Source: a virus (taxonomy: Duplodnaviria; Caudoviricetes). Taken from it: a stretch of 36,657 nt of DNA. Under the pieces are notes generated by a model. It saw only the letters and a list, made by a program, of their open reading frames with translations, did no database searches and had not been told where the DNA came from. The translations under genes were made by a program, and so were the position numbers. Shown piece by piece: positions 3,509 to 36,657 of this stretch. Position 1 is the stretch's first letter. Each line of letters starts with the position of its first letter. The stretch lies in IMG/VR virus record IMGVR_UViG_3300043432_000216, positions 1 to 36,657 of that record; one strand, written 5' to 3'.

Positions 3509-4777
3509 ATGCCTACACTAACACAAAGAATCAATGCGTTTTTCAACCCGGCGATCCCTGATGAAGGGGAGACTTCGATGGCGGCGGCGATCCCGGCGGA
3601 TGGCGTGTGGGATAAGCTGAAGGCAGACCGGGAACGGCTGGCGGTGATGAAGACGTGCCGTGAGATGTATGACACGGATAGCCGCGTGGAGAAGGCACAT
3701 CGGTTCTATGCGCGCGATATTGTGCGGGCAGGTTTTATCGTGAAGACCAAGGATCTCGAAGCGAAGCAGGTTGCGGATGCGTTGCAGAAGCGGCTGGATC
3801 TCAATCAAATTTTGGAAGATGCAGTGCGGCTCACGTCCAGGGATGGGGATTCGTTCTATGAAGTGGTCGTGAATGATCTGATGGAAGTATCGGATTTTTC
3901 GCGCAAGCCCACGATGCAGGTACGGCGCAACAGCAATTCAGCGGATGAGTTCAACGATCCGCTGAAGGCGTTTTGGATGAGCGGCAGCCCGTGGTATAGC
4001 GGGGAACCGCCTGCGGATGCGATCTGGTTTGCGGAGTGGCAGATGATCCAGGCGCGTTGGAAGTTTGACGGTGAATCGAGATACGGCAAGCCGATGTTCA
4101 GCGCATCCACGGCGGCATGGAAGCGCGTGGTGGATGGCGAGTTGAATGTGGCAGTGCGGCGCAAGATGGGCGGGGCGCAATTGCGGCAGCATATCGTGGA
4201 AGGTTCGGCGGCGGATGTAGAAGCCTATAAGGAAAATAATAAGGCGGCATTTGGGAAGTTGGTTGCGGTGACGGACCTATTCACGAATAAGCCAGGCTCG
4301 CTGAATGTGCATCAGGGCGATGGGAACATCGATAAGATCGGGGATGTGAATCACCATGTTGCCACGATGATGGCTTCGAGCGATGTGCCGATGGAGTTGT
4401 TGGTGTTCGGCGAAGGCTTGAATCGCGATATTTTGGGCGAGAAAAAAGAAGAGTATGAGGAGACGTTATCGCAGGGGCGCGAATGGTTGACCGCGCAAGT
4501 GATCAAGCCGCTGTTGGAACGTCAATGGTTGTTGAAGGGCATTTTACCGGCGGGCATCAATTATGAAATTATCTGGCGGACTGCGAAGCCGTTGACACCT
4601 GCGGACCTGCGCGATCTGGCTGATGGTCTGGCACGCTTGCGGGTTTTGGGTGTGAAGGAAGAAGTCATCCAATCGATCGCGGCGATGTATTTGAAGAATG
4701 TGGATGCGGAGTTTATGAGCGGTGACGGTTTCAGCGCGGAGCAGTTTGCGAAGAGTCTGCAAGGGATCAGTATTTAG
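3509..4777 (+). CDS. Portal protein (T4 gp20-like)
   Basis: 422 aa; REM...D, RDGD.F.E, YGKPM...A...WKR, NIDKIGDV.H.....DVP segments recall gp20-type portals. Confidence 0.7.
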   Translation: MPTLTQRINAFFNPAIPDEGETSMAAAIPADGVWDKLKADRERLAVMKTCREMYDTDSRVEKAHRFYARDIVRAGFIVKTKDLEAKQVADALQKRLDLNQILEDAVRLTSRDGDSFYEVVVNDLMEVSDFSRKPTMQVRRNSNSADEFNDPLKAFWMSGSPWYSGEPPADAIWFAEWQMIQARWKFDGESRYGKPMFSASTAAWKRVVDGELNVAVRRKMGGAQLRQHIVEGSAADVEAYKENNKAAFGKLVAVTDLFTNKPGSLNVHQGDGNIDKIGDVNHHVATMMASSDVPMELLVFGEGLNRDILGEKKEEYEETLSQGREWLTAQVIKPLLERQWLLKGILPAGINYEIIWRTAKPLTPADLRDLADGLARLRVLGVKEEVIQSIAAMYLKNVDAEFMSGDGFSAEQFAKSLQGISI

Positions 4778-4797
4778 AGAGTAGAGAATAGAGAGTA

Positions 4798-6000
4798 GTG
4801 ATGAGTGTGATGTTGAAGCCGATTGAGTTGAACGAGAAATCCAAGAGTGCGGAGTTGATCGCGCAGTTGGATAAGATCCCGCTGGGGCGGATGTATAACG
4901 CTTCGTTCAAGGCGGTGGTGCGGTTGCATTTGTTTTTCACAGGTAGAACACACGAGCTATTTTCACAATTCACGAAAGAGGCGAAGGCGATCATCATGGA
5001 CCAGGCGGGGAAGGACCAGGAGCTGGATGGGTCGAGTGGTTTCGCGGCGCAGAATGAGATATTGAAGATATGGGGGGATGTGTTCAAGACGTGGAGTGAT
5101 GAGTTTCAGAAGGTGCGGGTGGAGGCGGCGAGTATTCCGTTTGGGGTGCTGGCGGTGGTGCATGAGAGGATGATCGTGCCAATGCTGAATGATGAAGGCA
5201 GAATGAAGAATGAGATGCTTCGCTCCGCTCAGCATGACATAACTGAGGCAGTTCAAGACGGTGTATTCAGCCCGCAGCTTTCGGTGTTGTTGAACGCGGC
5301 GGGCGAGTGGTTGTATGGTGATAGTTTGAATCTGTCCGCGCGGGTGTGGAACATTGACCGCGAGGCGCGGGATGCGATGAACGTGGTGTTGATGAAGGGC
5401 ATTGCGAATCAGGATTCGGCTTGGAATATTGCGCAGGAGTTGGAGCAATTTTTGGGCGCGAACCAGGATTGTCCGCGATGGACTTCGACGAGGCTGTATG
5501 GCAAAACAAAAGGCGAGATCGCTTCAGGCGATACGGGGGGGCTGGTCTCAGCGCCGTGTGATGGGCGCGGCGTGGCATACAATGCGCTGCGTTTGGCGCG
5601 GACTGAAATCCAGAAAGCCCATGCCCTGGCAACGGATAAGGTCCTCGCCGCGCAGCCGTGGGTCAAACAGGAACAGATCCATTTGAGTGCGGCGCATCCT
5701 GAAACCGATATCTGTGATGAGACGGTGCAAGCGGGCGTCAACGGCGAAGGGATTTACGATGTGGGCATGATCGAATTGCCCTTGCATCCGAATTGTCTGT
5801 GCTATAAGACCGCGGTGCTGATGGATGAAGCCACGTTCACAGCTTCGTTGAAAGGCTGGATGGATGGAAGTCAGCCGTGGAGTGAGATGGATGCGTATGA
5901 GCAGATGATCGGCGGCGATGTGAATAAATCCATTATGCCGAATGCGATCAATCTGGCGGTGTGGTTGTTCGGTGACAATTTGGAGAAGTGGCTCAAGTGA
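4798..6000 (+). CDS. Minor head morphogenesis protein (Mu gpF/SPP1 gp7-like)
   Basis: RLARTE...A, DICD and LHPNCLC motifs; follows the portal. Confidence 0.8.
   Translation: MMSVMLKPIELNEKSKSAELIAQLDKIPLGRMYNASFKAVVRLHLFFTGRTHELFSQFTKEAKAIIMDQAGKDQELDGSSGFAAQNEILKIWGDVFKTWSDEFQKVRVEAASIPFGVLAVVHERMIVPMLNDEGRMKNEMLRSAQHDITEAVQDGVFSPQLSVLLNAAGEWLYGDSLNLSARVWNIDREARDAMNVVLMKGIANQDSAWNIAQELEQFLGANQDCPRWTSTRLYGKTKGEIASGDTGGLVSAPCDGRGVAYNALRLARTEIQKAHALATDKVLAAQPWVKQEQIHLSAAHPETDICDETVQAGVNGEGIYDVGMIELPLHPNCLCYKTAVLMDEATFTASLKGWMDGSQPWSEMDAYEQMIGGDVNKSIMPNAINLAVWLFGDNLEKWLK
5212..5239 (-). repeat. REP-like element TGTCATGCTGAGCGGAGCGAAGCATCTC inside a CDS
   Basis: Resembles GTCA-type REP repeats; preceded by heptamer units at 5182-5211; translated in frame as EMLRSAQHD. 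Confidence 0.55.
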
Positions 6001-6002
6001 AA

Positions 6003-6030
6003 ATGATGAATGATGAATGCGGAATGATGA
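6003..6030 (+). repeat. Heptamer tandem repeat (ATGATGA-type)
   Basis: ATGATGA ATGATGA ATGCGGA ATGATGA. Related arrays at about 2796-2835, 5182-5213, 7352-7380, 10217-10244 and 29093-29120. Confidence 0.8.
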
Positions 6031-6040
6031 AGGCAAAAGA

Positions 6041-6460
6041 ATGAGTCTTTCGGATGAAGTAAAAACCGCGCTTGAAAATAATGGCACGCTGATGGCGTTG
6101 TTGACCGGGGGGTTGCATAACAACGTGGAAGAGATCTCGCGCCAGAATACGCCGGGTGCGTTCGATAGCACTACGAAGGAGATCATGCCGTGTGCGTTGA
6201 TCAAGTATGGGACGGATACGCGGCTGAAAAGCGGACTAGCGAACTCGGTCAATTCCCCGTTGACGATTTATTTTTACCAACGCCAGGGGTATGCCGTGAT
6301 CGAAGCGGCGATGGATTTGGTCTTTACGCTGATGTCTGAAAATAAGATCGGGACCAGCGTTTGGAATATTGAGTTCGATATTGCAGTGAATCAACAGCGA
6401 GATACAGCATTGGATTGTGCGCTCGGCTCGCTTAGATTCGTCGCCAAGAGGCGGCGATAA
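6041..6460 (+). CDS. Putative tail terminator protein
   Basis: About 139 aa, immediately upstream of the tail tube gene; L...L..N..L.ALL.GG N-terminus. Confidence 0.55.
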   Translation: MSLSDEVKTALENNGTLMALLTGGLHNNVEEISRQNTPGAFDSTTKEIMPCALIKYGTDTRLKSGLANSVNSPLTIYFYQRQGYAVIEAAMDLVFTLMSENKIGTSVWNIEFDIAVNQQRDTALDCALGSLRFVAKRRR

Positions 6461-6501
6461 TCGCCAAACGGCGACGATAAATTTAGAAAAGGAGAAACAA
6501 A

Positions 6502-7347
6502 ATGGCATTAGATACCAATCCAACACCCTACGGGCTGAGCGACATCAAATTGACTTCCATCGATGGTGTAACTCAGGTGGACCTGCCTGCCGCAACGAAG
6601 CTGACCTTCAAGGAACGCATCAAATCGGCGGAAGGTGTGGGCGATGATAAGTTGTCCACGGTTGTGGCTGTACGCGAGGGCGTCGAATGGGAACTGGAAG
6701 CAACCGGTCTCCCGCTTGAGGCGCTGGCATTGATGTACGGCACCACCACAACCACAACCGGCATCACGCCGGATCAAGTGAAGACGCTCGTCCATGCGGG
6801 CGCAGTCCGCTTGCCGTATTTCAAGATCTACGGCAAGAGCCTGGGCGACGGTGATGATGACATCCATTGCATCATCTGGAAAGCCAAAGTCACCGAAGGA
6901 CTCGATGCACCGCTGGCATACGGCGAATTGCAGAAGGCAACCATCAAGGGACTGGCGATCGATGACGGTTCAAACGGGATCTTTGAATGGGTCCAGAACG
7001 AGACCGCCTCTGCCCTACCCGGAGCGACTGGCAGCCCGTCCGCGATCACATGCACGCCGGTACCTGCGGACGCCGCCACTGGCATTGACATCACCGCTGA
7101 CATCACACTGACGTTCAACAACGCACTGGCAGCAGGCGCGGAGAATGGCATCGTGCTCGTCCGTGCGGATACCGCTGCGGCAATTACCGTGGTGCGCACG
7201 ATCAGCGGCAGCCGCAAGGTGGTGACGTTGAACCCGTCCTCCAGCCTCACGGCGAACAAGCAGTATTTGATCATCGTTCCAGGCGTGACCGATATCTATG
7301 GTCAGGCTTTCGCGAACACCGTGTACGATTTCACCACGGCACCATAG
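6502..7347 (+). CDS. Major tail (tube) protein with C-terminal Ig-like domain
   Basis: Strong AAGGAG RBS; YGLSDIKL start. C-terminal P.DAATG......ITLTFN...VTLNP...L.....Y...DIYGQ.....FTT is an SbsA/Big_5-type Ig domain. Confidence 0.8.
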   Translation: MALDTNPTPYGLSDIKLTSIDGVTQVDLPAATKLTFKERIKSAEGVGDDKLSTVVAVREGVEWELEATGLPLEALALMYGTTTTTTGITPDQVKTLVHAGAVRLPYFKIYGKSLGDGDDDIHCIIWKAKVTEGLDAPLAYGELQKATIKGLAIDDGSNGIFEWVQNETASALPGATGSPSAITCTPVPADAATGIDITADITLTFNNALAAGAENGIVLVRADTAAAITVVRTISGSRKVVTLNPSSSLTANKQYLIIVPGVTDIYGQAFANTVYDFTTAP

Positions 7348-7362
7348 AACAATGATGAATGA

Positions 7363-7397
7363 TGAAGGGAGAAGGATGAATAATCCTTCTCCCTTCA
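7363..7397 (+). other. Perfect 15-bp stem-loop after the tail tube gene
   Basis: TGAAGGGAGAAGGAT / ATCCTTCTCCCTTCA with loop GAATA; no U-tract; abuts the next RBS. Confidence 0.75.
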
Positions 7398-7406
7398 GGA
7401 GAAATT

Positions 7407-7850
7407 ATGTCAAAGCAATTATTAAGTTTGAAGCAATCGGCGCAAGATAAGCGCGTGAATTTGGCGGAGTGGCGGGCAAGGCGGTTGCAGGAATTGGATT
7501 TGCCAAGCGGTTTGCATGTGAAGGTGCGGGATGTGTCGTTGACCGATCTGGCGTTGACGGGGCGCATCCCGAATACGTTGATGGATGTGATCGCGCAGGC
7601 GAACGGCGACGAAGCCAAGACGCAGGCAGCCGTGATGGATAACGCGGCGGAATTTGGGAAGATGCTGGATGTGATGACGAAGGCATGTTTGGTCGAACCC
7701 GCCATCGGCGATGTGGCAGACGCGGAGCATATCCTGTTGGAAGAAATTCCAAGCGAAGATAAGTTATTTTTGTTCAATCATTTGAATCGGGAGGCTGAGC
7801 AGATGCGCTCCTTTCGCGAAGGAGAAGCAGAACCTGCTCAGGTTGCATAA
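7407..7850 (+). CDS. Tail assembly chaperone (G)
   Basis: Lies between the tube and tape-measure genes; ELDLPSG..VKVR and ACLVEP motifs. Confidence 0.7.
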   Translation: MSKQLLSLKQSAQDKRVNLAEWRARRLQELDLPSGLHVKVRDVSLTDLALTGRIPNTLMDVIAQANGDEAKTQAAVMDNAAEFGKMLDVMTKACLVEPAIGDVADAEHILLEEIPSEDKLFLFNHLNREAEQMRSFREGEAEPAQVA

Positions 7851-8109
7851 CCAGGCGGAAGCCTACGGCAAGTTACCCAGTGAGATCATGGGACTTGAAT
7901 CCCCGTGGGGCGCGTGGCAGTTTAATGAGATCACGCTGATGGTGGGGCGGCGGGTCGAGAATAATTTGAATAAAGGCAAAGAGGCGTTCGATGGATTGGG
8001 TGATCAGCGGTCAGCGGTGAGCGGTCAACCAAGGCAATATCGAAGCGCAAAAAACAAAGTAACGAAGCGGATGAAGATCCCTGAGAATGGCATATGGCGA
8101 TCCAATTAG
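7813..8109 (+). CDS. Tail assembly chaperone extension (GT), probably reached by +1 frameshift
   Basis: The +1 frame is open from TCC_TTT_CGC (7809-7817) to 8109 (FAKEKQNLLRLHNQAEAYGKLPSE...). No clear RBS for the TTG at 7843. Confidence 0.55.
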   Translation, partial: FAKEKQNLLRLHNQAEAYGKLPSEIMGLESPWGAWQFNEITLMVGRRVENNLNKGKEAFDGLGDQRSAVSGQPRQYRSAKNKVTKRMKIPENGIWRSN

Positions 8110-9851
8110 GTAGTGCATACGGAAAAGTTGCGTTAGATGTCAAAGGTTTGCTCAGTGCAGTCATGCAGGGCAAAGCCGGTCTTGAATCTTTGGCAAGCGC
8201 GGGCGAAAATATTGGCGCAGGGATGAAGCGTGCCGGGCAAGCCATGACCATCGGTTTGACGTTGCCCATTTTAGCAGCGGGCGCGGCATCCATCAAAGCG
8301 GCAAGCAATTTTGAAGAGACAAAAAATAAAGCAGTTGTAGTATTTGGCGAAATGTCAAATAGTGTTGTTTCAAATGCCAATAAAGCCGCAACTGCATTAG
8401 GTGTAAGCAGAACTCAATATCTTGATTATGCCTCTTCGATCGGTGCCGCATTAACTGCTGGCGGAATGGGAATAAAACAATCTACAGAATTGGCTGAAGG
8501 TGCAGTTAAACATTTCGCGGACTTGGCATCTTTTCATAATGCGCGCGTGGAAGATGTTGCGGTAGCGTGGCAAAGTGCCATTCGTGGACAATATGAACCG
8601 ATCCAACGGTATTTCCCGTTCATCACAAATGAGTACATGCTGACATATGGAACCGCTAATGGCTTGGTTGATGCGAACACAGAGAAATTGACCGCCAATC
8701 AACGCGCTATTATTTTGAATGCCATTGCCCTAGATTCGAAATTAAATCCAGCAATCAACGATTTTGCGGAAACTTCTAAAGGATTGGCAAATCAGGGAAG
8801 AATAACTGAAGCTGAATTTAGAAATTTGATGCAGACATTTGGAGAAAATTTACGCCCCATTGTTGCCACCTTAATTATAGAATTTAACAAGCTATTAGAG
8901 AAATTAAATTCTCTTTCACCAGTTCAACAAAAAATGATTATCGTATTTCTGGCAATGGTGGCGGCGATGGGTCCGGTGTTGGTGGTATTGGGCACGGTGA
9001 TCTCGTTCGTATCCACTCTGATCGGTTTCACAAGCGGACTGGCTGGGATGGGCATATCTCTTGGCGCGATCGGCGCGGCGTTGGGGACGGCGGGCACTGC
9101 GATCGTGGGCGTGGGCGCGGCATCATTGCCGGTGATCGGCATTGTGCTGGCAGTGATCGCCGTGGTGGGGCTGCTGTATTGGGCATGGAAGAAAAACCTG
9201 TTCGGCATTCAGGATCTCGTGGCGAAATCGGCGGCGGGATATCGTTATGCCTGGGAACGCTTCACGAGCTGGTGGCAGGAGAACACGAAGAACGCGGGCG
9301 CGAATGTCCAGGCGACGTTTGCAAATATGGGTCCCAACATTCAAAGCGCGTTTCAACGCTTTGGCACATCGGCGAGCGCTGGCTGGAATGCGTTCATGAG
9401 CTGGCTGCGGAATGCGCTGATGCAGGCACGCAATTACATTGCGAATGCGTTCTCGAATGTGAACTGGGGCACGCTCGGCAAAAATATTTTGATGGGTCTG
9501 GCGAATGGGATGTTGCTGGGCTTGCCGAATTTATTGGTGATCGCCAAGAAGATCGCGGATTCGTTATTGAAACAGATCAAGACCGCGCTGGGTATTCATT
9601 CGCCATCGGCGGAAGCCATGAAGTTGGGCATGTTCACGGCTCAAGGCTTTCAGTTGGGTTTGCAGAAAGTTTCACCCGAAGATATGGCGCGCTCGTTGGC
9701 ACGTCCGATCACGGGCGGGAACACGTCCACACAGCAGACGATCATTCAGAATTTCGCGAGTGGTCTGACGATGCAACAGGTGCGCGGGATGATCGCAGAA
9801 AATAACGAGGCGCTGGTCAATACGATGGTGGGCGCATTAGGTGGTGCATAA
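8094..9851 (+). CDS. Tape measure protein
   Basis: Ala/Gly-rich; G..MTIGLTLPI.A.GAA motif, hydrophobic middle, C-terminal LGIHSPS. Confidence 0.9.
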   Translation: MAIQLGSAYGKVALDVKGLLSAVMQGKAGLESLASAGENIGAGMKRAGQAMTIGLTLPILAAGAASIKAASNFEETKNKAVVVFGEMSNSVVSNANKAATALGVSRTQYLDYASSIGAALTAGGMGIKQSTELAEGAVKHFADLASFHNARVEDVAVAWQSAIRGQYEPIQRYFPFITNEYMLTYGTANGLVDANTEKLTANQRAIILNAIALDSKLNPAINDFAETSKGLANQGRITEAEFRNLMQTFGENLRPIVATLIIEFNKLLEKLNSLSPVQQKMIIVFLAMVAAMGPVLVVLGTVISFVSTLIGFTSGLAGMGISLGAIGAALGTAGTAIVGVGAASLPVIGIVLAVIAVVGLLYWAWKKNLFGIQDLVAKSAAGYRYAWERFTSWWQENTKNAGANVQATFANMGPNIQSAFQRFGTSASAGWNAFMSWLRNALMQARNYIANAFSNVNWGTLGKNILMGLANGMLLGLPNLLVIAKKIADSLLKQIKTALGIHSPSAEAMKLGMFTAQGFQLGLQKVSPEDMARSLARPITGGNTSTQQTIIQNFASGLTMQQVRGMIAENNEALVNTMVGALGGA

Positions 9852-10216
9852 TGGCAGATTTTCAAATCGGATCAACTTCGAGCATGACGAACATTGAGAG
9901 CCTGGGCACGCCTTTGGAGATCCCGAAGAGCGAATATTTCCCGTATGCGCGGACGGTTACATTGGGGAACGGCGGCAAGCGCGGCGTGGGTTTCCCGATG
10001 GCAACGTGGACATTTCCGCTGTTGACGGTGGAACAGCGCGATCAACTCAAAACGTTTTGCACAGATGCTTCAGCCGCGGTGTGGATTCGCACGAAGTTGA
10101 ACGATGATACCTACGCCGATTTCACAGCGACGATGATCTGGGTGGAGAATGAACCCAGATGGTACGGTGTGAAGCAAAATTATCAGATCGTTTTTCGGCA
10201 TTTGGTGGCACTCTAA
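9851..10216 (+). CDS. Putative distal tail protein
   Basis: 121 aa directly after the tape measure gene. Confidence 0.5.
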   Translation: MADFQIGSTSSMTNIESLGTPLEIPKSEYFPYARTVTLGNGGKRGVGFPMATWTFPLLTVEQRDQLKTFCTDASAAVWIRTKLNDDTYADFTATMIWVENEPRWYGVKQNYQIVFRHLVAL

Positions 10217-17348: not shown

Positions 17349-17367
17349 TTGAAAGGAGGTGAGACTT

Positions 17368-17520
17368 ATGTTTTTTGCATCCAAAGAGAAAGGGCAGGGG
17401 TTGGTGGAATATGCGATCATCCTGGCATTGATTGCCGTGGTGGTAATCGCCGTGATGACCGTGTTGGGCAATAAAGTCAACAACACGCTCAGCGTGATCA
17501 GCAACGCACTCCCTTCGTAA
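17368..17520 (+). CDS. flp: Flp/Fap (Tad, type IVc) pilin, 50 aa; absent from the ORF track
   Basis: MFFASKEKG|QGLVEYAIILALIAVVVIAVMTVLGNKVNNTLSVISNALPS: prepilin cleavage G, E+5/Y+6, hydrophobic helix. Strong RBS AAAGGAGGTGA. Confidence 0.92.
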   Translation: MFFASKEKGQGLVEYAIILALIAVVVIAVMTVLGNKVNNTLSVISNALPS

Positions 17521-17557: not shown

Positions 17558-17851
17558 CGGGCAAATCGGGTGAGTGAAGATTTGCCTATAGCGATGTGCC
17601 CCCATGGGGGACAGTTCTATAGGCAAATTGTAACCCGTTCCCGCGGGAAGGGGAACCTCAAAAGGGGGGGATTCATTCGGGGTGGGGAGATAGTAGGTGA
17701 TCGTGCCAGCGATCGCTTTATCTTCGGTCTTATAGACTTTGATCTCTTGGATGAATTCCATCAGCGCGGCGCGGACTTCGGTGGGGGATGAGTTGGTGAT
17801 GCGTTCTTGCAGGGACTTGGCGAGCTGTGTGATCTGCGCTTCGTTTATATT
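17537..17851 (-). pseudogene. Possible C-terminal remnant of a large serine recombinase
   Basis: Minus-strand frame NINEAQITQLAKSLQERITNSSPTEVRAALMEFIQEIKVYKTEDKAIAGTITYYLP recalls serine-integrase C-termini. It is preceded by an in-frame stop and has no catalytic N-terminus. Confidence 0.4.
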
Positions 17852-17877
17852 TCAATAAATTCCTTTGTAACATAGAC

Positions 17878-17906
17878 TTGACAAAAATAAAATATAGGTG
17901 TAATAT
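17878..17906 (+). promoter_or_regulatory. Putative sigma70 early promoter
   Basis: TTGACA (17878-17883), 17 bp, TAATAT (17901-17906), in AT-rich DNA upstream of the HTH gene. Confidence 0.65.
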
Positions 17907-19374: not shown

Positions 19375-20364
19375 ATGCAAACACTTCAAACTTTGTCTCT
19401 TAACGTCCCTATGTTCAACGTTCAAACGGATTGGCAAACTGAATTCGCTGTCCACGTTGCCAAGCACTACCGCAACGCCAAAAGCGCCACACTCATCCAT
19501 CAACACCTGCGCATCTTTGCAGCATGGTACGAAGCTGAATTCGGACACCCCTTCGATGCCCGCCTGCTCACGCATTACGATCTCGTCCGCTTCCGCATTC
19601 ACTCCCTCGACGAAGCCAAGGTCAAAGCCCGCACCTGGAACTCCCGCCTGTGGGCGCTCGGCATCCTATGCGACTGGCTTGGCATGTCCACCTTGCTTGA
19701 AGACATCACCGAAAAAAGCACCAACAGCGTATCCGACAAACATCGCGCCCTCACCGACAACGAATACAACCGTCTCATCCACGCCCTCGAACTGATCGCC
19801 ATGCACAAATCCCCGACCCAAGCAAAATACATCGACGCCGTGCTCGATTGGGCATCCGTCTACATCATGCTCCACGGCTTGCGCGTTGAAGAATGTTCCC
19901 ACGTCGAACTCCGCGATCTCGATATCGACCACGAACGCAGTGGATCGGTCCTCGTCCGCAATGGCAAAGGCGACAAAGAGCGGAAGGTCCCACTCAACTC
20001 CGAAGCTCGACGTGTCCTCCGCCTCTGGCGTGACGTTCGTCCTGCCTCAGCCTCCGAATCATCTTCCCCCAAATCCGATGCTCTTTCGCATTTGGGGGAA
20101 CGCGGCGCAGCCGAAGGGGGTTCGCTCTTCTGCGTCTCCAAACGCACCCTCCAGCGCAACGTGCCCACGCTGGGCGCACAGATCGGCGTCCCCGATCTCA
20201 CCCCGCACTGGCTCCGCTATACCTTCGCCAAACGCCTCGAAAAGAACGGCACGCCCCTCGAAACCATCCGCGACCTGCTCGGACACGAATCCATCGAAAC
20301 CACCAAACGCTACCTCAAATCATCCGCCGAAGAACTCCAGTCCGCGGTGGAAGGGGTGATGTGA
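19375..20364 (+). CDS. XerC/D-like tyrosine recombinase
   Basis: GLRVEE (R), GKGDKER (K), HWLR (HxxR), LLGH, TTKRY (Y); SAM-like N-terminal domain. Confidence 0.9.
20064..20121 (-). repeat. REP-like family A element inside the Xer-like CDS
   Basis: TTCCCCCAAAT...ATTTGGGGGAA stem; its reverse complement resembles the copy at 25987-26044. Confidence 0.7.
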
Positions 20365-21350
20365 TGAAGTTTTTAGAAACTGTGCGCGATGCACTTCGCA
20401 CCCATCATTACGCCTACAAGACCGAAAAGACATATATGCACTGGATCAAGCAGTACGTGCGTTTCATCAAGCCCGTTCATCCACGCGAGGCTGGGCAAGA
20501 TGGCATCAAACGCTTTTTGACTCATTTGGCAGTTGATCGGCAAGTCAGCGCAACCACGCAGAATCAGGCATTGGCGGCATTGCTCTTCTTATACAAACTC
20601 TATGGCGTTGAGATCGGTAATCTTGATATTGTCCGCGCGAAGAAATCTACCTATCTTCCTACAGTGCTCAATCACGAAGAAGCTATGCGTTTGCTTGAAC
20701 AGTTGAACGGTCAATATCGCATCATGGGGCAATTAATGTATGGTGGCGGCTTGCGTCTGATGGAATGTTTGCGTTTGCGCGTTAAAGACGTGGACTTTGA
20801 AAATCGCACCTTGACCCTGCGCGATACAAAATCAAACCATGATCGTATCACTTGCCTGCCCGAATCAGTCATCCCAGCGTTGATATTGCACCTGGCAAAA
20901 GTCAAAGCACAGCATACCGAAGACCTGGCGAATGGGCGCGGCGAAGTCGAATTACCTTTTGCTCTCGACAAGAAATATCCTAATGCGCCATTTGAATGGG
21001 CATGGCAATACATCTTCCCTGCTATGAACTTCTCCACAGATCCGCGCAGTGGGCACGTCCGCAGGCATCATGTGTATGAAACCAGTGTCCAAAAGGCGAT
21101 CAAACAAGCCGCGCGCAAAGCTGGCATTCATAAACTCGTCGGTCCGCACACACTTAGGCATTCATTCGCCACCCGTCTACTTGAACTTGGAAACGACATC
21201 CGTACCATTCAGGAGTTATTAGGACACAAAGATTTGAAAACCACCATGATCTATACCCACATTACTATGAAGGGGAGCGGAGTGATCAGTCCGCTTGATG
21301 CAGTCAATCCTCAGCGCGGTATTAAACGCACCGTTGCTGTTGAATCATGA
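20361..21350 (+). CDS. intI: Integron integrase (IntI family)
   Basis: HY...[49 protein letters not shown], the integron-specific insert (DL..G.G.V.LP.AL.KKYP.A..EW.WQ..FP...S.DPRSG..RRHH), HTLRHSFAT and [19 protein letters not shown]. Confidence 0.95.
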
Positions 21351-21357
21351 GTTAGGC
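21339..21357 (+). other. attI-like site overlapping the 3' end of intI
   Basis: GTTGAAT (degenerate L box), CATGA spacer, then GTTAGGC core (GTTRRRY, 21351-21357) directly after the intI TGA. Confidence 0.7.
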
Positions 21358-21599
21358 GCTTACTCGCCAGAAAAGGAAATGAAATGTCAAAGTCATTACG
21401 CAGTATGTCAGAGTCCGAGCGCAAGGCAGCCATTGCCCGCCGTTTGTCGTCCAATACCAAAGGTCTTGGCTATTGGGCAGCCGTTGATGCACAGGCACGC
21501 CTAACAAAGCGTGCAGTTGACGCGGCGAAGGCTGCGGCTCAACAGGTCAAATCCGATGGCGATGTGTCGCAAGGCACGCCGCGCAACTAACGCAAACCG
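21352..21599 (+). mobile_element. Integron gene cassette (248 bp)
   Basis: Starts at G/TTAGGCG and ends at the G of G/TTAGAT. Internal CGCCTAAC (21498-21505) is the exact complement of GTTAGGCG. Confidence 0.85.
21384..21590 (+). CDS. Cassette ORF, 68-aa hypothetical, reads through most of attC
   Basis: AAGGA RBS 6 nt upstream; stop TAA falls in the L' arm of attC. Confidence 0.55.
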   Translation: MSKSLRSMSESERKAAIARRLSSNTKGLGYWAAVDAQARLTKRAVDAAKAAAQQVKSDGDVSQGTPRN

Positions 21600-21605
21600 T
21601 TAGAT
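21499..21605 (+). other. attC site (107 bp)
   Basis: R'' GCCTAAC and R' GTTAGAT. Arms GCGTGCAGTTGACGCGGCG / CGCCGCGCAACTAACGC pair with two extra bases in the left arm (C and A, i.e. G and T on the bottom strand). Confidence 0.9.
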
Positions 21606-21765
21606 CAAGGATGCAACTGAGATATGGCAGGTCAACACACGGCACAGCACAGCGGTCAACGTGGGCACGCGTCCACTTGTGTATCAGTAGAAGAAAGAAT
21701 CGTAATGTTCACTTTCTACATGCGTTGTGTAGGGCGGGTACACGTCCCTGTGAAAACGGTTGGGC

Positions 21766-21793
21766 GTGTCACATAGGTAGTCTTATGTGACAA
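21766..21793. other. dif-like 11-6-11 tyrosine-recombinase site candidate
   Basis: GTGTCACATAG-GTAGTC-TTATGTGACAA; additional half-site TGTCACATA at 21853-21861. Confidence 0.5.
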
Positions 21794-21978
21794 AACCCTG
21801 CCCTATGTGCCTGTTCTTGGCGGTTAGATTGGGGCGTAAGGGGGGGATTATTTGTCACATAGTGATGAGGGGTAGGGGGGCGGGGGTGCTCGGCGATGAT
21901 CGGCGTGATTGGCAGGGCTAGCCGTGGCGGGTTGGCTCGAATATATAACAAAATTCTAGGAAAACGGGTTCTTGGCTT

Positions 21979-24900
21979 ATGACAATTATAGATGACATCA
22001 AAGCACAAATTGATCTGAGCGTTCTGGTTTCAGAAACGGCTTCTACAAAGTTGAAGAAGAGCGGAGGCGGATGGATCGGGTTTTGTCCATTCCATGATGA
22101 CAGGCACAAGCCGAGCTTAGTGGTGTATGCACCGAATGCGAAGGGGGGCTGGTATTGGAAATGCTTTTACTGCAATGAAGGCGGAAGTCAGATCGATTGG
22201 TTATTGAAGAAGAACCCCGGTTGGGATACGACTGAGGCGATCAAAAACCTGGCGACGCGGGCAGGGATCGATCTGCGGGTGGGGGATGCGAGTATCCCTG
22301 AGCGAGTGGCGGCGCAAAAGAAGCGCAGCGCTTTGCGAATTGCGATGGATGTATTTCGGCGCTGGCTATTGGGAACTTATCGGGATGGAAAAATTTCAAA
22401 AACGGGTGATGCTGCTGCTTTGAGTTATGCAATTGACCGCGGCTGGAACATGGGCGCGATCGAGAACGGCGGTTTATTGGGTTTCAGCGGGCGGGCTACT
22501 GCTGAAGAATATAAAGAGATGCGCGGCGAATTCCAAATGAACGGCATTGATCTGCTTTCGCCTGAAGCCGTGATGATCCTGGGCTTCAAGGGGAATGTGG
22601 CGGAGTGGGCAAAGGCGCGCGGCTTGGATGCGAAAGCCTTTTCGGATAATTACATCAGCGGGTTCATGGATATGCCGGGGCTGGTGTATGCGCATAAATT
22701 TGACGGCAAAATTAAATATCTTTCGATGCGTATCCTGCCCGGCTTCGATGAGAAGCGGAAGAGTCACAATCCGAATGCGGGATTGATCGGGGACCGGCGG
22801 GCATTCCGTAATTCGTTGTATCGTCATCATCATTTGGAAGGTCAAGAAAAGGGCGCGCTGCTGTATGTGGTGGAAGGGCAGGGGGACGCGAAAACTTTTG
22901 AGATGGTCGGTTTGCCAGCGGTGGCTTTGTGCGGTTCGGCATGGGAATATCTGGTTGAGAGCGGTGAGATCGACGATTGGTTGAATGATTATGAAGAGTT
23001 GATCTATGTGACGGATGCGGATGAGGCAGGGGAGAAGGTGGTGACTGGCAAGAAGAACGATTATGGAATGATGAAGGCTTTGGGCGCGATGTTGTGGGTG
23101 GGTCGGACGCCAAAGAAGACCTGGACACGCCCGGATGGTACTGAGAAGACCATCAAGGATGTGAATGACATCGCGCAATATGTGAAGGATACGAAGGCTG
23201 AAGAAAAGATCAGCAATGCACTCTATAACGAAATATCCACCAAGGCAGAGCGGATCGTGGTGATGGCGGCGCGGTTTGCGGGCACGCTAGAAGGTCAACC
23301 ACGCAAACAAATGGTTGAAAAGATCGTGCGTCCGATGATCCTATCCATACCGGAAGATCAACGTTCGGATCTGTATCGAAATCTGGCATATGCTCTTCAT
23401 CCAAATGTTGCAAAGTCGGTTGCTACTACTGACTTCAATAAATGGCTGCGGGCACAGGAAAAAAGCGCGGCGAATAATACGGAAGAAGAAACAAAACTGC
23501 CTGAGATTGAAACCTATGGTGGTTGGTACCCTGACAATGAAACAAAGAATAGTGGTTATTTGGTTGAGTTGTATTATGACCGAAAAGTAAATAAGATCCG
23601 CCTGGCGTGGGTGCATATCAAGGATTTGCAGAACAATGTGCGCGAGATCGGGCAGGGCAAGTGCTTGACGTTGGAAAATAAAATTTTGGTGCCGCCTGAA
23701 TATGACCAATTGATCCAAGAGAATATTGAACTGAATTCATCCGCGTTGAAAATGTCCACGGGCATCGGCGAGAAATTTTCGACGGGTGATCTGATCAAAC
23801 GGAGTTCTGATTTCTATAATCGTTATTTTTACACGGAAGATAAAAGCAAGTTCAAGTTCAGCGCTTCGTGGTCATTAAATACCTGGGTGCATGATTGTTT
23901 CGATACGATGAACTTTCTGAGAATGCGCGGACCGGCTGGAAGTGGAAAGTCAGATCTGGCGTATTTGGTGGGCTTGACATCTTATCGTTTCGCTGTGACG
24001 GCGGCGGTGACTACTGCGGCTTCGCATGTAGGCATGGCAAAAATCTATAACTCCACAACTTTGATGGATGAATACGACAGCATGATGAAGCGAGATGATG
24101 GAAGCATTGAAGGGTTTTTGAAGGCACGTCCAATGCGCAGGATTGCCCATGCGTTCAAAATGATGGAAGTGATGACGCCGAACGGCAAGACATTTGTCCC
24201 GAGCAATACGGCCATTTATGGTGCCACGATCTTGACCGGCTATAAACCTTTTCAAGACAAAGGTATCGAAAGCCGCTGTATGACTTTTGACCTGGCGCGA
24301 ACGGACATGCTGACACTCGATAAAAACGATTTTGAGCCTGGGTATTATCCGCCTGAATTGGAGGATGAAGCTGAGGAGATTCGGAATGCATGTCTGCGCT
24401 GGCGTTTAGAAATGTGGATGCCGCGGATCGAGTTAACGATGGAACAACGCAAGGCACATAAATTGAATGATGTGCTGGTATCAGCGCGTGAAAATCAATT
24501 ATTGCGACCGATGAAGGTCATGGCGGTTGTGCAGAATGATATGCAATTATTGGAAGATCTATTCACAATCGGGCGAGCAAATTATGAAGATGAACTGCTA
24601 CAGCTTTCAGGATCGTTTGAGGCAATGGTAATGCGGGCGGCGCTGGCTGCGGATATTGCCAAAGATTTCGCATTGGGGATCAAACCACAAGCGAGCGCAC
24701 AATATGCTGAGAGAGTGAAAGGATATGCGGAGCTGGTGCAGGTGGGAAAGTTGGGCAAATACGGAGTGGTGCGCTATATCCTGTATAAGAACCTGGCGAA
24801 GATCATGAATGAAATCTTTGACCTGGAAAGCATCGATGAGTCTGAAGACGACAAGAAGCGCCGAAAAAAGACGCAAAGCAAAACCGCTGGCGACATTTGC

Positions 24901-25152
24901 CGAGATGCCTTCAGAATGCCGGTGATGCGAACGGGGGCGGGGTTTGTGGTGATCTTGAGCCGTGAGCGCCTAGATATTGCGCGGATGCGGCTCGGTCTGG
25001 ATCGTGAACCTGAATATGATCCGAATTATGTCGAAGAGACTGAAGATGTTGAAGTTGCAAAAGAACCCGAGCCAGTTCAGGAAAAATTTGAAGATTATGT
25101 TCCATCGGCTGATGCGGTTTGGCTGGATGAACATGATGATGAGATGCAATGA
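21979..25152 (+). CDS. Primase-helicase fusion (CHC2 zinc finger, Toprim, P-loop NTPase)
   Basis: CPFHDD..PS...CFYC; VEGQGD and DAD (Toprim); GPAGSGKS Walker A and LMDE Walker B. Confidence 0.88.
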   Translation: MTIIDDIKAQIDLSVLVSETASTKLKKSGGGWIGFCPFHDDRHKPSLVVYAPNAKGGWYWKCFYCNEGGSQIDWLLKKNPGWDTTEAIKNLATRAGIDLRVGDASIPERVAAQKKRSALRIAMDVFRRWLLGTYRDGKISKTGDAAALSYAIDRGWNMGAIENGGLLGFSGRATAEEYKEMRGEFQMNGIDLLSPEAVMILGFKGNVAEWAKARGLDAKAFSDNYISGFMDMPGLVYAHKFDGKIKYLSMRILPGFDEKRKSHNPNAGLIGDRRAFRNSLYRHHHLEGQEKGALLYVVEGQGDAKTFEMVGLPAVALCGSAWEYLVESGEIDDWLNDYEELIYVTDADEAGEKVVTGKKNDYGMMKALGAMLWVGRTPKKTWTRPDGTEKTIKDVNDIAQYVKDTKAEEKISNALYNEISTKAERIVVMAARFAGTLEGQPRKQMVEKIVRPMILSIPEDQRSDLYRNLAYALHPNVAKSVATTDFNKWLRAQEKSAANNTEEETKLPEIETYGGWYPDNETKNSGYLVELYYDRKVNKIRLAWVHIKDLQNNVREIGQGKCLTLENKILVPPEYDQLIQENIELNSSALKMSTGIGEKFSTGDLIKRSSDFYNRYFYTEDKSKFKFSASWSLNTWVHDCFDTMNFLRMRGPAGSGKSDLAYLVGLTSYRFAVTAAVTTAASHVGMAKIYNSTTLMDEYDSMMKRDDGSIEGFLKARPMRRIAHAFKMMEVMTPNGKTFVPSNTAIYGATILTGYKPFQDKGIESRCMTFDLARTDMLTLDKNDFEPGYYPPELEDEAEEIRNACLRWRLEMWMPRIELTMEQRKAHKLNDVLVSARENQLLRPMKVMAVVQNDMQLLEDLFTIGRANYEDELLQLSGSFEAMVMRAALAADIAKDFALGIKPQASAQYAERVKGYAELVQVGKLGKYGVVRYILYKNLAKIMNEIFDLESIDESEDDKKRRKKTQSKTAGDICRDAFRMPVMRTGAGFVVILSRERLDIARMRLGLDREPEYDPNYVEETEDVEVAKEPEPVQEKFEDYVPSADAVWLDEHDDEMQ

Positions 25153-27696: not shown

Positions 27697-28674
27697 ATGA
27701 GTATCAATTTTGGGTTCGATATGGGAATGGGCGCGTTGAAGTTGTGGAGCGCATCTGGTGGTTTGCAGTTGGTGAGCCAGGTGGCAACGAACGGGCACGA
27801 GCATTTGATGGATGGTGTAATCGGGTTGAAGAACCGTCGCCGTCCGGTGTTGGTTCAAGGTGATTTCGGGTCTTTTTATGTGGGGGATGGGGCGCATGAG
27901 CATGGTCGCCCAGTCGAGAATTTGGACTTTGACCGTTTGACCGGCGCGCCTGAAATGCGGGTGTTGTTGTATGCGGCGCTGGCTCAATATCAGGCTGAAT
28001 ACGGTCCATTTGACGAGGCGCTCAATCTGATGGTGGGTTTGCCGTTGCAAATGATGACGGGCGACCTGGCGAAGGAATATCAGAAGGGCGTGAAGACCTG
28101 GTTGAAGGGCACGCATGAATTTACAGTGGACGGGTTCACTCATCGCATCGAGGTGGAAGATGTGAAGCAGACGTCCCAGCCGGTGGGCGCGTTGTTTGAT
28201 TATGTGCTTGATCATCGTGGGCAGATGATCGCTGAGCGCGGGTCCGCTTTGCTGGATGAGGTGGGCGTGATCAGTGTGGGCTTCAATACGGTGGAGTTAT
28301 TGGTCGTAAAGGAACGCGGAGCGCTGGAACGCTTTACGAAGGGGAATACGCTGGGTGTGCGGCGTCTGCTCGAATTGATGAACCGCGATGGTCTGTTCAG
28401 CCTGGGCGAGTTGGATGCGAAGCTGCGGGCGGGGCGTTTGAACGGTGAGTTGAAGCAAGCCATGCCGGTGTGGAGCCGCGAAGTCAACGGTGAGATCGAG
28501 AAGGTGTGGGGTGCTGCGCATCGGCGTTTTGCGAAGGTGTTGATCGTTGGTGGCGGGGCATTGCTATTGAAGGATGCGTTGACGGTGCAATTCGGGCATA
28601 AAGCATGGGCGCCGGATGACACGGTGCTGGCGATCGCGCGCGGGTTGTGGAAGTTGTCGGTGATGAAAAGATAG
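27697..28674 (+). CDS. parM: ParM/StbA-family actin-like ATPase
   Basis: DMGMGALK (phosphate 1), VGLP, SQPVGA, SVGFNTVE (phosphate 2), IVGGGA (adenosine), ARG. Confidence 0.85.
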   Translation: MSINFGFDMGMGALKLWSASGGLQLVSQVATNGHEHLMDGVIGLKNRRRPVLVQGDFGSFYVGDGAHEHGRPVENLDFDRLTGAPEMRVLLYAALAQYQAEYGPFDEALNLMVGLPLQMMTGDLAKEYQKGVKTWLKGTHEFTVDGFTHRIEVEDVKQTSQPVGALFDYVLDHRGQMIAERGSALLDEVGVISVGFNTVELLVVKERGALERFTKGNTLGVRRLLELMNRDGLFSLGELDAKLRAGRLNGELKQAMPVWSREVNGEIEKVWGAAHRRFAKVLIVGGGALLLKDALTVQFGHKAWAPDDTVLAIARGLWKLSVMKR

Positions 28675-34680: not shown

Positions 34681-36657
34681 ATGTCAAAAAATAATCGGTT
34701 TGATGAACGGATCGAAGCGCAGGTGAAATTGGAAGAACGCGAAGAGGGCAAGCCGCGCAAGATCAAAATCGAAGGTGCTATGACGGCGAATGTTGTGAAT
34801 GGCAACAAGCGCCGATATCCTGTTGAAGTGGTGCGTTTGGCGGTGGAGGAATTACGAAGCCATCTGAACGAGAGCGCTGGGCAGGGGCGTGCCATTCAAA
34901 TTCTTGGCGAGGCAGAACATCCCTCCGATAAGGGTGGGCGTCCGAACCTGCTGGAAACCGTGACGAAATGGGATGAGGTCGTGTTCGACGGAGCACGGGT
35001 CGATCTCACCGGTCGCATTGTGGAAACCAGCAAAGGCAAAGACATCCTGACCCTGATGGAAAGCGGCGTGATGCCCGGCGTGAGTTTGCGTGGATACGGC
35101 GATGGCAAGACAGTTGGTAAGGGCGACGATAAAGTTTTTGAAGTGACGGAGTTGCACATCACCGGTTTTGACCTGGTGCTGGAACCGTCGTTCGAGAACG
35201 TCGCGCAATTAGTTGAATCACAAAATCAAAATCAATCATCTATGGAGGATGACATGTCTGAAGAACTTTTGACCAAACTGCAAGAGCAGGAAAAAGAAAA
35301 GGCTGAACTCAAGCAACAGCTTGCTGAAGCCCAGAAGAAAGTCGCTGATGGCGAACAAGCCCAGGCGAAATTGGATGAGGCGCGTGTGAAGTCTGAGATC
35401 GCGGTTGCGATCGCAGAAGCCAGTAAGGATCTGCCGTTCGGCGCTGCGCTCAACAAGATGTTCGTTGATAGCCTCAGCGAAATGACCTTTGTCAACGTGG
35501 CGGATGTGAAGACCTTCGCCGAAAATCAACGCAAGCAGTTCAGCAAGATGGCGGCTGCGGGTGTGTTGAAGGGCATCGGCTTTGATGAGACCAAACGCTC
35601 TGTCAAAGTGTTGGGCGATGTGCTCGAAAATGAAACCGGCATCCCTGAGTTTGGACGCGCTGCGTTCGAGATCAGCGAATCTGTCCGCAGGCATGAAATG
35701 CGTCCGATCAAGGATCTGCGCAAGAACGAGAGCCGCGCCGCGCAGTTCACGGTGCAGTTGCTGGAACGCTTCGATAAGACCTATCAGCGCCAGTTGATGC
35801 ACGAAGCGCAGATGTTCACGGAAGCGGAAGCCGCAACCGATCTGAACCTGCCGTATTCCGTCAGCCGCGCGATCATTGCGGAAGCATACCCGAACCTGGT
35901 CGCCGCCAATGTGTTCGATATCGGTTTGATGAGTGGCAGCCCCGAGAATATTTGGTTTGAAGCCTTTGCAGGCGAGACCGGTTACACCGTGGCGATCACC
36001 GATGAAGTCGAAACCGCAGGCGCTGAGGGCACATGGTACGCCCTGGCACATGCCAACATCGTCCCCGGCACCGTGGTTGTGACGAGCAATCCCGCTGGTA
36101 CGACGTACGTCGAAGGCACTGATTTTGTGATCGATTATGAACTCGGCAAGATCAAACCGATCTCAGCCGGTGCAATCGATGCCAACGATGTGCTCGTGGA
36201 TTATGAATACAACGCCATCAGCGAAGGCGAAGGCGCTGAAATTCAGCAAGCCAAGACCACCATGAGCTACCAAACCATCACCGCCAAGGCGATGCGCGTG
36301 GCTGACAATATCAACCACGAAGCGATCATCTTCAGCCGCACACAATTGGGCTGGGATGCCGTAGCCCGCACCATGGCAAACATCATCCGTGAGACACGCC
36401 GCGTGATCGATCGTCAGTTGATCGAAAAGGCGCTGGCTTCTTCGTTGAGTGTCGCTTCCAATAGCGGCGGCACCTGGACCGCATCGACCGATGCGTGGGC
36501 GATCTTCGCTGAATACCTTGGGTATGCCAAGGTCAAAGTGGCGAACCGCTATTACGAACCGACCGCCTTCCTGATGAGCGTCACGAACTCTGACATGCTC
36601 AGCAACTGGGATGGCTTCACCCGCGTCGGTTTCCCGAATGCCCTACTCGATTCCGCG
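34681..36657 (+). CDS. Prohead protease-scaffold-major capsid polyprotein (T4 gp21/gp23-like), 740 aa when joined across the junction to 373
   Basis: AGGAG RBS. Uninterrupted frame: NGNKRRYP, GEAEHP, GVSLRGYG, FDLV.EPS (gp21-type protease), a coiled coil, then AYPNLVA..VF and TITAKAMRV...GWDA...I.RE....IDR (gp23-like). Confidence 0.88.
   Translation, partial: MSKNNRFDERIEAQVKLEEREEGKPRKIKIEGAMTANVVNGNKRRYPVEVVRLAVEELRSHLNESAGQGRAIQILGEAEHPSDKGGRPNLLETVTKWDEVVFDGARVDLTGRIVETSKGKDILTLMESGVMPGVSLRGYGDGKTVGKGDDKVFEVTELHITGFDLVLEPSFENVAQLVESQNQNQSSMEDDMSEELLTKLQEQEKEKAELKQQLAEAQKKVADGEQAQAKLDEARVKSEIAVAIAEASKDLPFGAALNKMFVDSLSEMTFVNVADVKTFAENQRKQFSKMAAAGVLKGIGFDETKRSVKVLGDVLENETGIPEFGRAAFEISESVRRHEMRPIKDLRKNESRAAQFTVQLLERFDKTYQRQLMHEAQMFTEAEAATDLNLPYSVSRAIIAEAYPNLVAANVFDIGLMSGSPENIWFEAFAGETGYTVAITDEVETAGAEGTWYALAHANIVPGTVVVTSNPAGTTYVEGTDFVIDYELGKIKPISAGAIDANDVLVDYEYNAISEGEGAEIQQAKTTMSYQTITAKAMRVADNINHEAIIFSRTQLGWDAVARTMANIIRETRRVIDRQLIEKALASSLSVASNSGGTWTASTDAWAIFAEYLGYAKVKVANRYYEPTAFLMSVTNSDMLSNWDGFTRVGFPNALLDSA
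36531..36657. repeat. Terminal overlap, identical to 1-127
   Basis: Exact match to the window start. Confidence 0.97.

Follow-up and report, generated by a model that had tools for sequence, protein, structure and literature searches.

A co-oriented integron in a circular tailed phage, with a candidate docking site in the last codons of its integrase gene

Can a phage lineage keep an integron of its own? Integrons are regarded as bacterial platforms that phages rarely carry off, and the question is raised by the IMG/VR virus record IMGVR_UViG_3300043432_000216 (Duplodnaviria; Caudoviricetes), all 36,657 nucleotides of which were analysed and are here called the window. A preliminary description had seen in it an integron integrase gene (intI) followed on the same strand by one gene cassette with its recombination site (attC), and had proposed a phage-domesticated platform for gene capture. 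What was seen there is confirmed, and its interpretation is supported with three corrections; overlooked was the integron attachment site (attI), which appears to lie within the intI coding sequence. We consider that this co-oriented integron, with its docking site probably in the last ten codons of intI, is likely to be the phage family's own device for gaining and swapping small accessory genes, so that the family would keep its own integrase clade in a phage operon.

The integrase gene, its tail and the cassette

The window is a complete circular tailed phage. The whole record is a single contig with a 127-bp terminal repeat, and a 31,529-letter contig from run X1 bridges both ends, so the genome is a 36,530-bp circle. 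Its proteins include a terminase large subunit, portal-like and head proteins, a major tail protein and a tape measure, as expected of a tailed phage; also encoded are a primase-domain protein, an actin-like partition protein, an M23 peptidase and an Flp pilin. Depth in X1 is 27-30 across xer, intI, cassette and primase, and one contig from X2, a run of a separate study, covers 20039-21840 with 0 differences. The block therefore contains no mis-join, and misassembled host DNA, a possibility raised in the preliminary description, is ruled out.

The integrase gene lies on the plus strand at 20364..21350 and encodes 328 amino acids (aa). Its listed start is GTG at 20361; homologues begin one codon later, at ATG 20364, which overlaps the stop codon of the upstream xer-like gene. 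IntI scores 411 bits on NCBIfam TIGR02249 (cut-off 265), its residues 2-312 align to VchIntIA (PDB 2a3v, E 2e-83) including the integron-specific insertion, and the six catalytic residues R131, K156, H262, R265, H288 and Y297 are all kept, as expected from the intact IntI first described. Comparison with eight protein-selected viral homologues gives pN of 0.10-0.29 against pS of 0.71-0.91, which indicates purifying selection on the protein; the inactive integrase that had been kept in view as an alternative was not found. The fold, the insertion and the catalytic residues are shared with VchIntIA/IntI4 and IntI1 (47.6% identity to IntI1). Those systems differ in having a divergent layout, a LexA-controlled promoter and a Pc promoter, and their integrases end near an SPL motif, whereas the window IntI has a tail of ~15 residues that would encode attI.

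We place attI at 21318..21357 (plus strand) on the basis of synonymous freezing, a sharp homology boundary after GTT, and anatomy. Its conserved arm occupies the last 10-11 codons of intI; the parts would be an L box (21339-21345), a spacer (21346-21350) and an R box (21351-21357). By comparative evidence from 73 loci the crossover falls between 21351 and 21352, at G/TT, directly after the intI stop codon: the GTTAGGC core starts at 21351 and the stop ends at 21350, just as had been noticed. When nine protein-selected genes are compared pair by pair, the synonymous codon is the same in 198 of 237 cases over the last ten codons, as against 3423/7986 for the core, where no window out of 303 is as high as the tail. 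Since synonymous sites of the core are saturated while pN stays low, the tail is under constraint at the DNA level and the protein under purifying selection. This dual coding would place attI within the gene: the codons are frozen, and would also serve for docking. An AVES C-terminus ends 107 of the best 120 homologues (78-100% identical, the window's own included), and viral homologues from the protein search agree in their tail residues and DNA as far as the GTT, with unrelated sequence beyond it. In locus L131 a premature stop interrupts the intI tail and the DNA motif is still kept. Other IntI types in these phages have different tails, with GTT 1-13 nt past the stop (L130, L136, L159, L182, L162, L185 and the virus Rctr41k, GenBank KX853513).

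Behind the stop codon is a single integrated cassette of 248 bp (21352..21599, plus strand), recognised by the attC profile, by core pairing and by the DNA following it, which matches the pre-primase backbone of relatives. The GTT after that of the core is at 21599, giving the 248 bp originally reported, and 21498-21505 is the exact complement of 21351-21358, which is the signature of an integrated cassette noted in the preliminary description. The attC is 107 nt long (21499..21605, plus strand), with R'' at 21499-21505, L'' at 21511-21518, L' at 21585-21591 and R' at 21599-21605. In the fold of its bottom strand the extrahelical bases are a G (position 16) and a T (position 22), the same bases that are numbered G16/T23 in attCaadA7 (Nivina, 2016). 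The length and extrahelical bases thus stand as claimed; the site departs slightly from the textbook form in one T-C mismatch next to the G and an L'-R' spacer of 7 nt, both of which are family consensus. Folding is modest, with z of -1.8 for the bottom strand (9 of 200 shuffles do as well) and -3.4 for the top strand (0 of 200). A profile built from the attC arms of relatives, the window excluded, scores 53.6 at this site against 15.5 for the best of 60 shuffled windows, and no other site in the window scored; an Rfam search returned no match. A second cassette in 21600-21978 was considered and ruled out, the DNA there matching the backbone before primase in intI-less relatives.

Because intI and the cassette share one strand, with attI downstream of intI, the layout is the co-oriented one ('inverted integrase'), as first stated, and not that of divergent integrons, where intI points away from the cassettes. 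By a crude rule, an upstream stop codon lies within -8 to +10 nt of the intI start in 22 of 25 intact intI genes. No sigma-70-type promoter matched within intI or attI (host promoters may differ from this type), and a search near intI for a LexA-type box of the Gram-positive type found none. There is no attC upstream of intI, and intI starts are preceded by no shared motif or target duplication. That intI is itself a cassette was ruled out, given the lack of an upstream attC and the presence of only one attC on either strand of the window. Among the window open reading frames (ORFs) scanned we found no transposase or resistance family, in keeping with the lack of transposon and resistance context noted before, and none among 72 cassette ORFs; the transposon context and resistance cassettes of mobile (class 1-5) integrons were not seen in either set.

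Cassette content in related phages

The attI pattern search returned 6 viral and 65 metagenome stretches; adding the protein-selected loci and removing five duplicates and one spurious match left 76 attI loci for analysis. Content past the crossover varies: 63 different first 40-mers occur among the 73 loci with at least 40 nt downstream. All 73 downstream starts begin with GTT, which is part of the selection pattern, while the bases following it are not. Of 68 distinct cassettes, 52 have an R'' that is perfectly complementary to the upstream core, and 4 of 68 have one that pairs so with their own downstream core. For several of the 16 not among the 52, the attC profile probably passed over an intervening site. 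Over 4,062 nt, xer and an intact intI included, L102 and L117 are 100% identical; their sequences part at the fourth base past the crossover. L072/L109 and L120 share an intI deletion; they agree as far as about +884 and separate within the second attC. The sampling of cassettes proposed in the preliminary description is supported by this variation among relatives.

The xer-intI order of the window is retained in L087, L099, L102 and L116, in some of them through to primase, with other arrays. A site in the early operon just ahead of primase, as originally described, is true of the window and is one of several positions in the phage family: intI also stands before xer (L003), in the late replication region (L130, L134, L136) or after the terminase small subunit (L070). 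One 17-nt attC arm is present in 48 viral stretches, 36 of which have at least two attC sites within 3 kb either side; IntI is nearby in 9 of the 48, always co-oriented, and 3 of these 9 repeat earlier loci.

The cassette ORF of the window (21384..21590, plus strand; 68 aa) has 46 homologues, whose alignment has a conserved core of ~40 aa, and its frame continues through the attC left arm and loop. The family has no match in Pfam, PHROG or NCBIfam, and one unnamed cluster in Atlas, at 0.76 and below chance level, assigns no function. Free-standing versions of 41-54 aa exist, three viral ones having no attC nearby; in cassette versions the frame runs via the attC left arm into different loops. 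The finding bears on the origin of cassettes, because this gene is found as an ordinary phage gene and also as a cassette, with several different attC tails. In the phage L137, whose array carries methyltransferase-like genes and lies before terminase, an 81% homologue ends at attC site 6 of 8; no IntI was found in L137, a record that is 64% complete. At 3700-3800 of the intI-less relative L151 there is a fragment of the window cassette gene with the start of the attC left arm, apparently a decayed copy.

By its sequence the cargo is of phage type, namely DNA methyltransferases and small unknowns. Fourteen of 72 crudely called cassette ORFs have a Pfam match and six of these are methyltransferases; the other matches include a GIY-YIG nuclease, zinc ribbons, a glyoxalase and a cupin, the last two both from the intI-less L101. 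Pfam found no resistance or toxin-antitoxin family among the 72.

A second cassette design was observed at 11355-11774 of L003, also exactly in L081, L096, L097, L102, L124, L133, L201 and L202, and with 2-3 mismatches in L119, L134 and L204. It starts with a short hairpin ending in AAC and a 13-nt arm, whose reverse complement follows 370-510 nt on, just before the next GTT, with an ORF between them; the gene is therefore inside the attC loop. The arms covary. A partner was found for 10 of 17 hairpin-start elements, and the left arm accompanies 4 of 4 viral right-arm matches. In the circular form of such a cassette the site would close across a short loop.

Origin and use of the integron

The phage early operon would transcribe intI, for which, as for the cassette, no promoter was found and whose start codon overlaps the upstream stop. 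Sigma-70-like consensus matches at the head of this rightward operon (17865..17906, plus strand) are likely to drive transcription of intI and the cassette, and the xer gene likely provides translational coupling to intI. So transcribed, IntI would be made during lytic development, when replication exposes single-stranded DNA. It would cut the attC of a circular cassette on its folded bottom strand, and the double-stranded attI, at G/TT, as in all integrons, a chemistry that is established (PMC5027507), and insert the cassette directly behind the intI stop codon; because the stop lies 5' of the cut, insertion could not harm the integrase. The new gene would then be read from the same transcript, and ribosomes that finish intI 33 nt upstream of its ATG could act like ORF-11/ORF-17 of attI1, where a reading frame across attI aids translation (PMC8876359). 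Cassettes would be supplied by co-infecting or resident phages and by host arrays with the same attC family. Produced at every infection, the integrase would also excise cassettes, a reaction that depends on replication (PMC5371416); this may account for the short arrays and for repeated loss of intI with attI kept.

Several findings weigh against a device of the phages' own. Metagenome assemblies may mis-join at shared attI and attC words, inflating the apparent swapping. The empty-site junctions and 248-bp circles that the preliminary description had proposed to look for did not appear in 6 distinct runs, whose contigs drop rare forms. The single RNA run gave only two 151-nt contigs, both downstream of the cassette. 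Sigma-70-like sites in the region number 5 against 5.3 by chance, so the promoter is a weak consensus match. The integron is dispensable: IntI is above cut-off in 0 of 6 xer-found relatives, two of them complete genomes, and two of the six have 1-2 attC sites elsewhere. Of the distinct attI loci, 44 have 1,050 nt or more upstream; in these intI is intact in 25, broken in 10 and not detected in 9, among which L113 has a remnant. The same attI occurs in host-type chromosomal DNA (L082, L091 and others), so the system is not phage-only. Finally, the host, probably Anaerolineales, is called from database names, not from spacers or a mapped prophage: one 81% IntI homologue carries the name of a Chloroflexota metagenome-assembled genome, and a contig with the same attI has CpaF, whose 93-96% relatives are Anaerolineales in 4 of 4 organism-named rows among 120 matches listed.

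The word 'domesticated' used for the platform has accordingly to be narrowed. The integrase of the window is intact and under purifying selection; in the family it is often broken by deletion, and the same attI stands without intI in host-type chromosomal DNA, so the word holds for the state seen now and implies no demonstrated direction of origin. Internal deletions that arose independently in intI and spared the attI tail were seen in L069/L128, L072/L109/L120, L095/L113, L096, L108, L115 and L118, with endpoints that differ among loci; L120 still encodes a 55-aa fusion of both intI ends. Constitutive expression of integrase has been linked to its inactivation (PMC8876359), a link that fits an operon-coupled intI. 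Among the candidates set aside is a branch of 63 nt that run X3 shows at the crossover (depth 3.3); it has only 30 nt in common with the window, could not be assigned to this phage and was not counted. Runs X4, X5 and X7, with small word shares, gave short pieces only, and no habitat or expression claim is made from them.

A wider form of the preferred reading is possible but doubtful as a whole: phages would be the main home of this integron lineage and form a phage-to-phage exchange network, attC sites overlapping 3' ends would turn phage genes into cassettes, and IntI would act in trans on attI arrays that lack an integrase, both in other phages and in chromosomes of Anaerolineales. The network would include the gene-in-attC-loop design, inserting easily and excising poorly, and infection itself would trigger the shuffling of host cassettes. 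attI without adjacent intI was observed in host-type DNA at L065, L071, L073, L079, L082, L084, L091 and L101; as the first cassettes differ, some integrase acts in trans on these copies or used to act before its loss.

The alternative that survives best is still unlikely. In it, a piece of a host chromosomal co-oriented integron has been repeatedly picked up by phages, then carried, shuffled and lost without benefit to them. The same attI, at times with intI remnants, does occur in host-type surroundings (behind Tad-comF-hpf-folE-like genes in L082, near spermidine synthase in L091, and also in L088 and L090), intI stands at several unrelated positions and is often broken, and the published Vibrio phage cases are captured host fragments (PMC9892861). 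Against it stand the strong purifying selection seen among the phage copies, the tight start/stop coupling of intI to phage genes and the phage-type cargo, and relatives keep the xer-intI arrangement at 82-88% IntI identity. No full-length close IntI homologue was found in 46 GTDB loci (best 56%), by an insensitive scan that also missed some 77-83% viral homologues and searched no Chloroflexota genome directly; the clade may yet have a chromosomal reservoir. The attC family of the window is present in 0 of 37 GTDB loci examined. In a tree of 54 IntI rows, from which partial genes, broken genes and duplicates were omitted and which holds no Treponema sequence, the window belongs to a clade of 26 rows (100/100), all of them from viral or metagenome contigs; the 27 GTDB rows are placed outside it, and Rctr41k is a long unplaced branch.

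Relatives carry a whole serine recombinase gene (536-551 aa) on the minus strand, left of the early operon. At 17560-17850 (minus strand) the window has a stub matching the C-terminus of this protein; it is without the leftward genes that stand beside it in relatives and has no room for them, and so has likely lost the usual lysogeny module. Since host-type arrays with the same attC family exist (L101), IntI and attI might be imagined to have replaced the stub integrase, inserting the whole phage genome into an attC of a host array. We regard this as highly improbable: L003 carries an intact serine recombinase plus intI, and no locus has phage genes, intact intI and then host-type DNA past the crossover, although several contigs end close to attI. 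The actin-like partition gene (27697-28674) and the Xer-like recombinase, both conserved in the family, would also fit a plasmid-like prophage.

It is scarcely credible that intI with its internal attI moves between phage operons as one selfish, cassette-like element, for although the 1-kb unit is compact and stands behind many different upstream genes, and IntI can cut secondary GTT sites (the intI of L135 being shortened just before attC), no shared motif, attC or target duplication lies upstream of intI starts, and ordinary phage mosaicism yields identical gene-boundary junctions. In L135 (2048-3069) intI is truncated past the catalytic region with attC directly next, as if IntI had inserted at a GTT in its own gene.

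If the integron is the phages' own device, its crossover provides a concrete site-specific route to the mosaic small-gene regions of phages. An attI in the integrase tail would make a self-contained platform of 1 kb in which translational coupling is built in, of use both as a tool and in basic research.

Known systems and neighbouring genes

Phage integrons and co-oriented integrons have already been published; the arrangement in the window and its phage home are new. Three complete integrons and one lone intI were found in 10,705 phage genomes (Qi et al., 2023; PMC9892861), those of Vibrio and P1 phages being host chromosomal or class 1 pieces. They resemble the window in having intI, attI and attC cassettes in a phage genome and a DNA methyltransferase cargo; unlike them, the window belongs to a phage lineage with its own IntI clade, co-oriented and embedded in an operon, with attI apparently inside the gene. 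Treponema chromosomal integrons ('inverted integrase', 'reverse'; Wu et al., 2013, PMC3607928; PMC4889954) also have intI transcribed towards attI and cassettes. They differ in being chromosomal and in their long arrays, and the putative R box of T. brennaborense is ~215 bp past intI, not at its stop; the inverted-integrase group is paraphyletic according to Cury et al. (2016; PMC4889954). As in ORF-11/ORF-17 of attI1 (PMC8876359), a frame runs through attI, ends at or near the crossover and may aid translation of the first cassette; there it gives a short non-functional peptide, whereas here it is the integrase itself and the translational effect is putative.

Archaeal attI has been described as 'immediately downstream' of intI (Ghaly, 2022; PMC9668308), a wording under which overlap is possible there. 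Chloroflexota are among the integron-bearing phyla (PMC8618304), and phage-resident integrons are not mentioned in the passages on them. A literature search by titles and abstract openings, most subscription papers and supplements lying outside it, gave no description of this integron lineage or of attI inside intI; the placement of attI within the last ten codons of intI is new here.

Virus Rctr41k is a relative of the window phage (terminase 71%, tail protein 76%). Like the window it has a co-oriented IntI, with GTT one base past the stop, and 6 attC sites of the same family; it differs in its IntI, which is 42% identical and outside the window clade. This six-attC integron, at 4680-10100 of KX853513.1 (L141), is unannotated and its integrase is labelled xerD. 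The main text of the Rctr41k paper (Gambelli et al., 2016; PMC5099504) uses 'integron' 0 times, and the record is marked partial, a class excluded by Qi et al. (PMC9892861). Among 50,697 INPHARED records, 9 match IntI at E below 1e-40, all at <60% identity, and one of them is Rctr41k.

Upstream of intI, 19375..20364 (plus strand) encodes the XerC-like tyrosine recombinase of the phage backbone, which is not an IntI and stands outside the integron: it scores 56.5 bits on TIGR02249 against the cut-off of 265, and the gene occurs also in intI-less relatives. The 3' edge of the array is formed by a backbone segment (21624..21776, plus strand) with similar DNA before primase in L080, L095, L116 and L128 and in the intI-less L006-L009. 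The downstream neighbour is a primase-domain replication protein (21979..25152, plus strand), identified by profile matches. Before primase, at 21767-21862, a 9-11 nt repeat is present in three copies, direct and inverted, and may be an origin or operator; GC skew becomes positive at these repeats. A GC-skew flip near 21,600 had suggested a replication origin adjoining the integron; the signal was weak in 3 relatives and is not relied on.

An Flp/Fap pilin gene at the end of the tail module (17359-17520) exceeds its Pfam cut-off and is possibly a moron related to superinfection or receptors. A protease-like frame starts at 34681, and a capsid frame wraps over the contig ends (34681-36657 and 1-373); frames that match these in Rctr41k are annotated capsid and protease.

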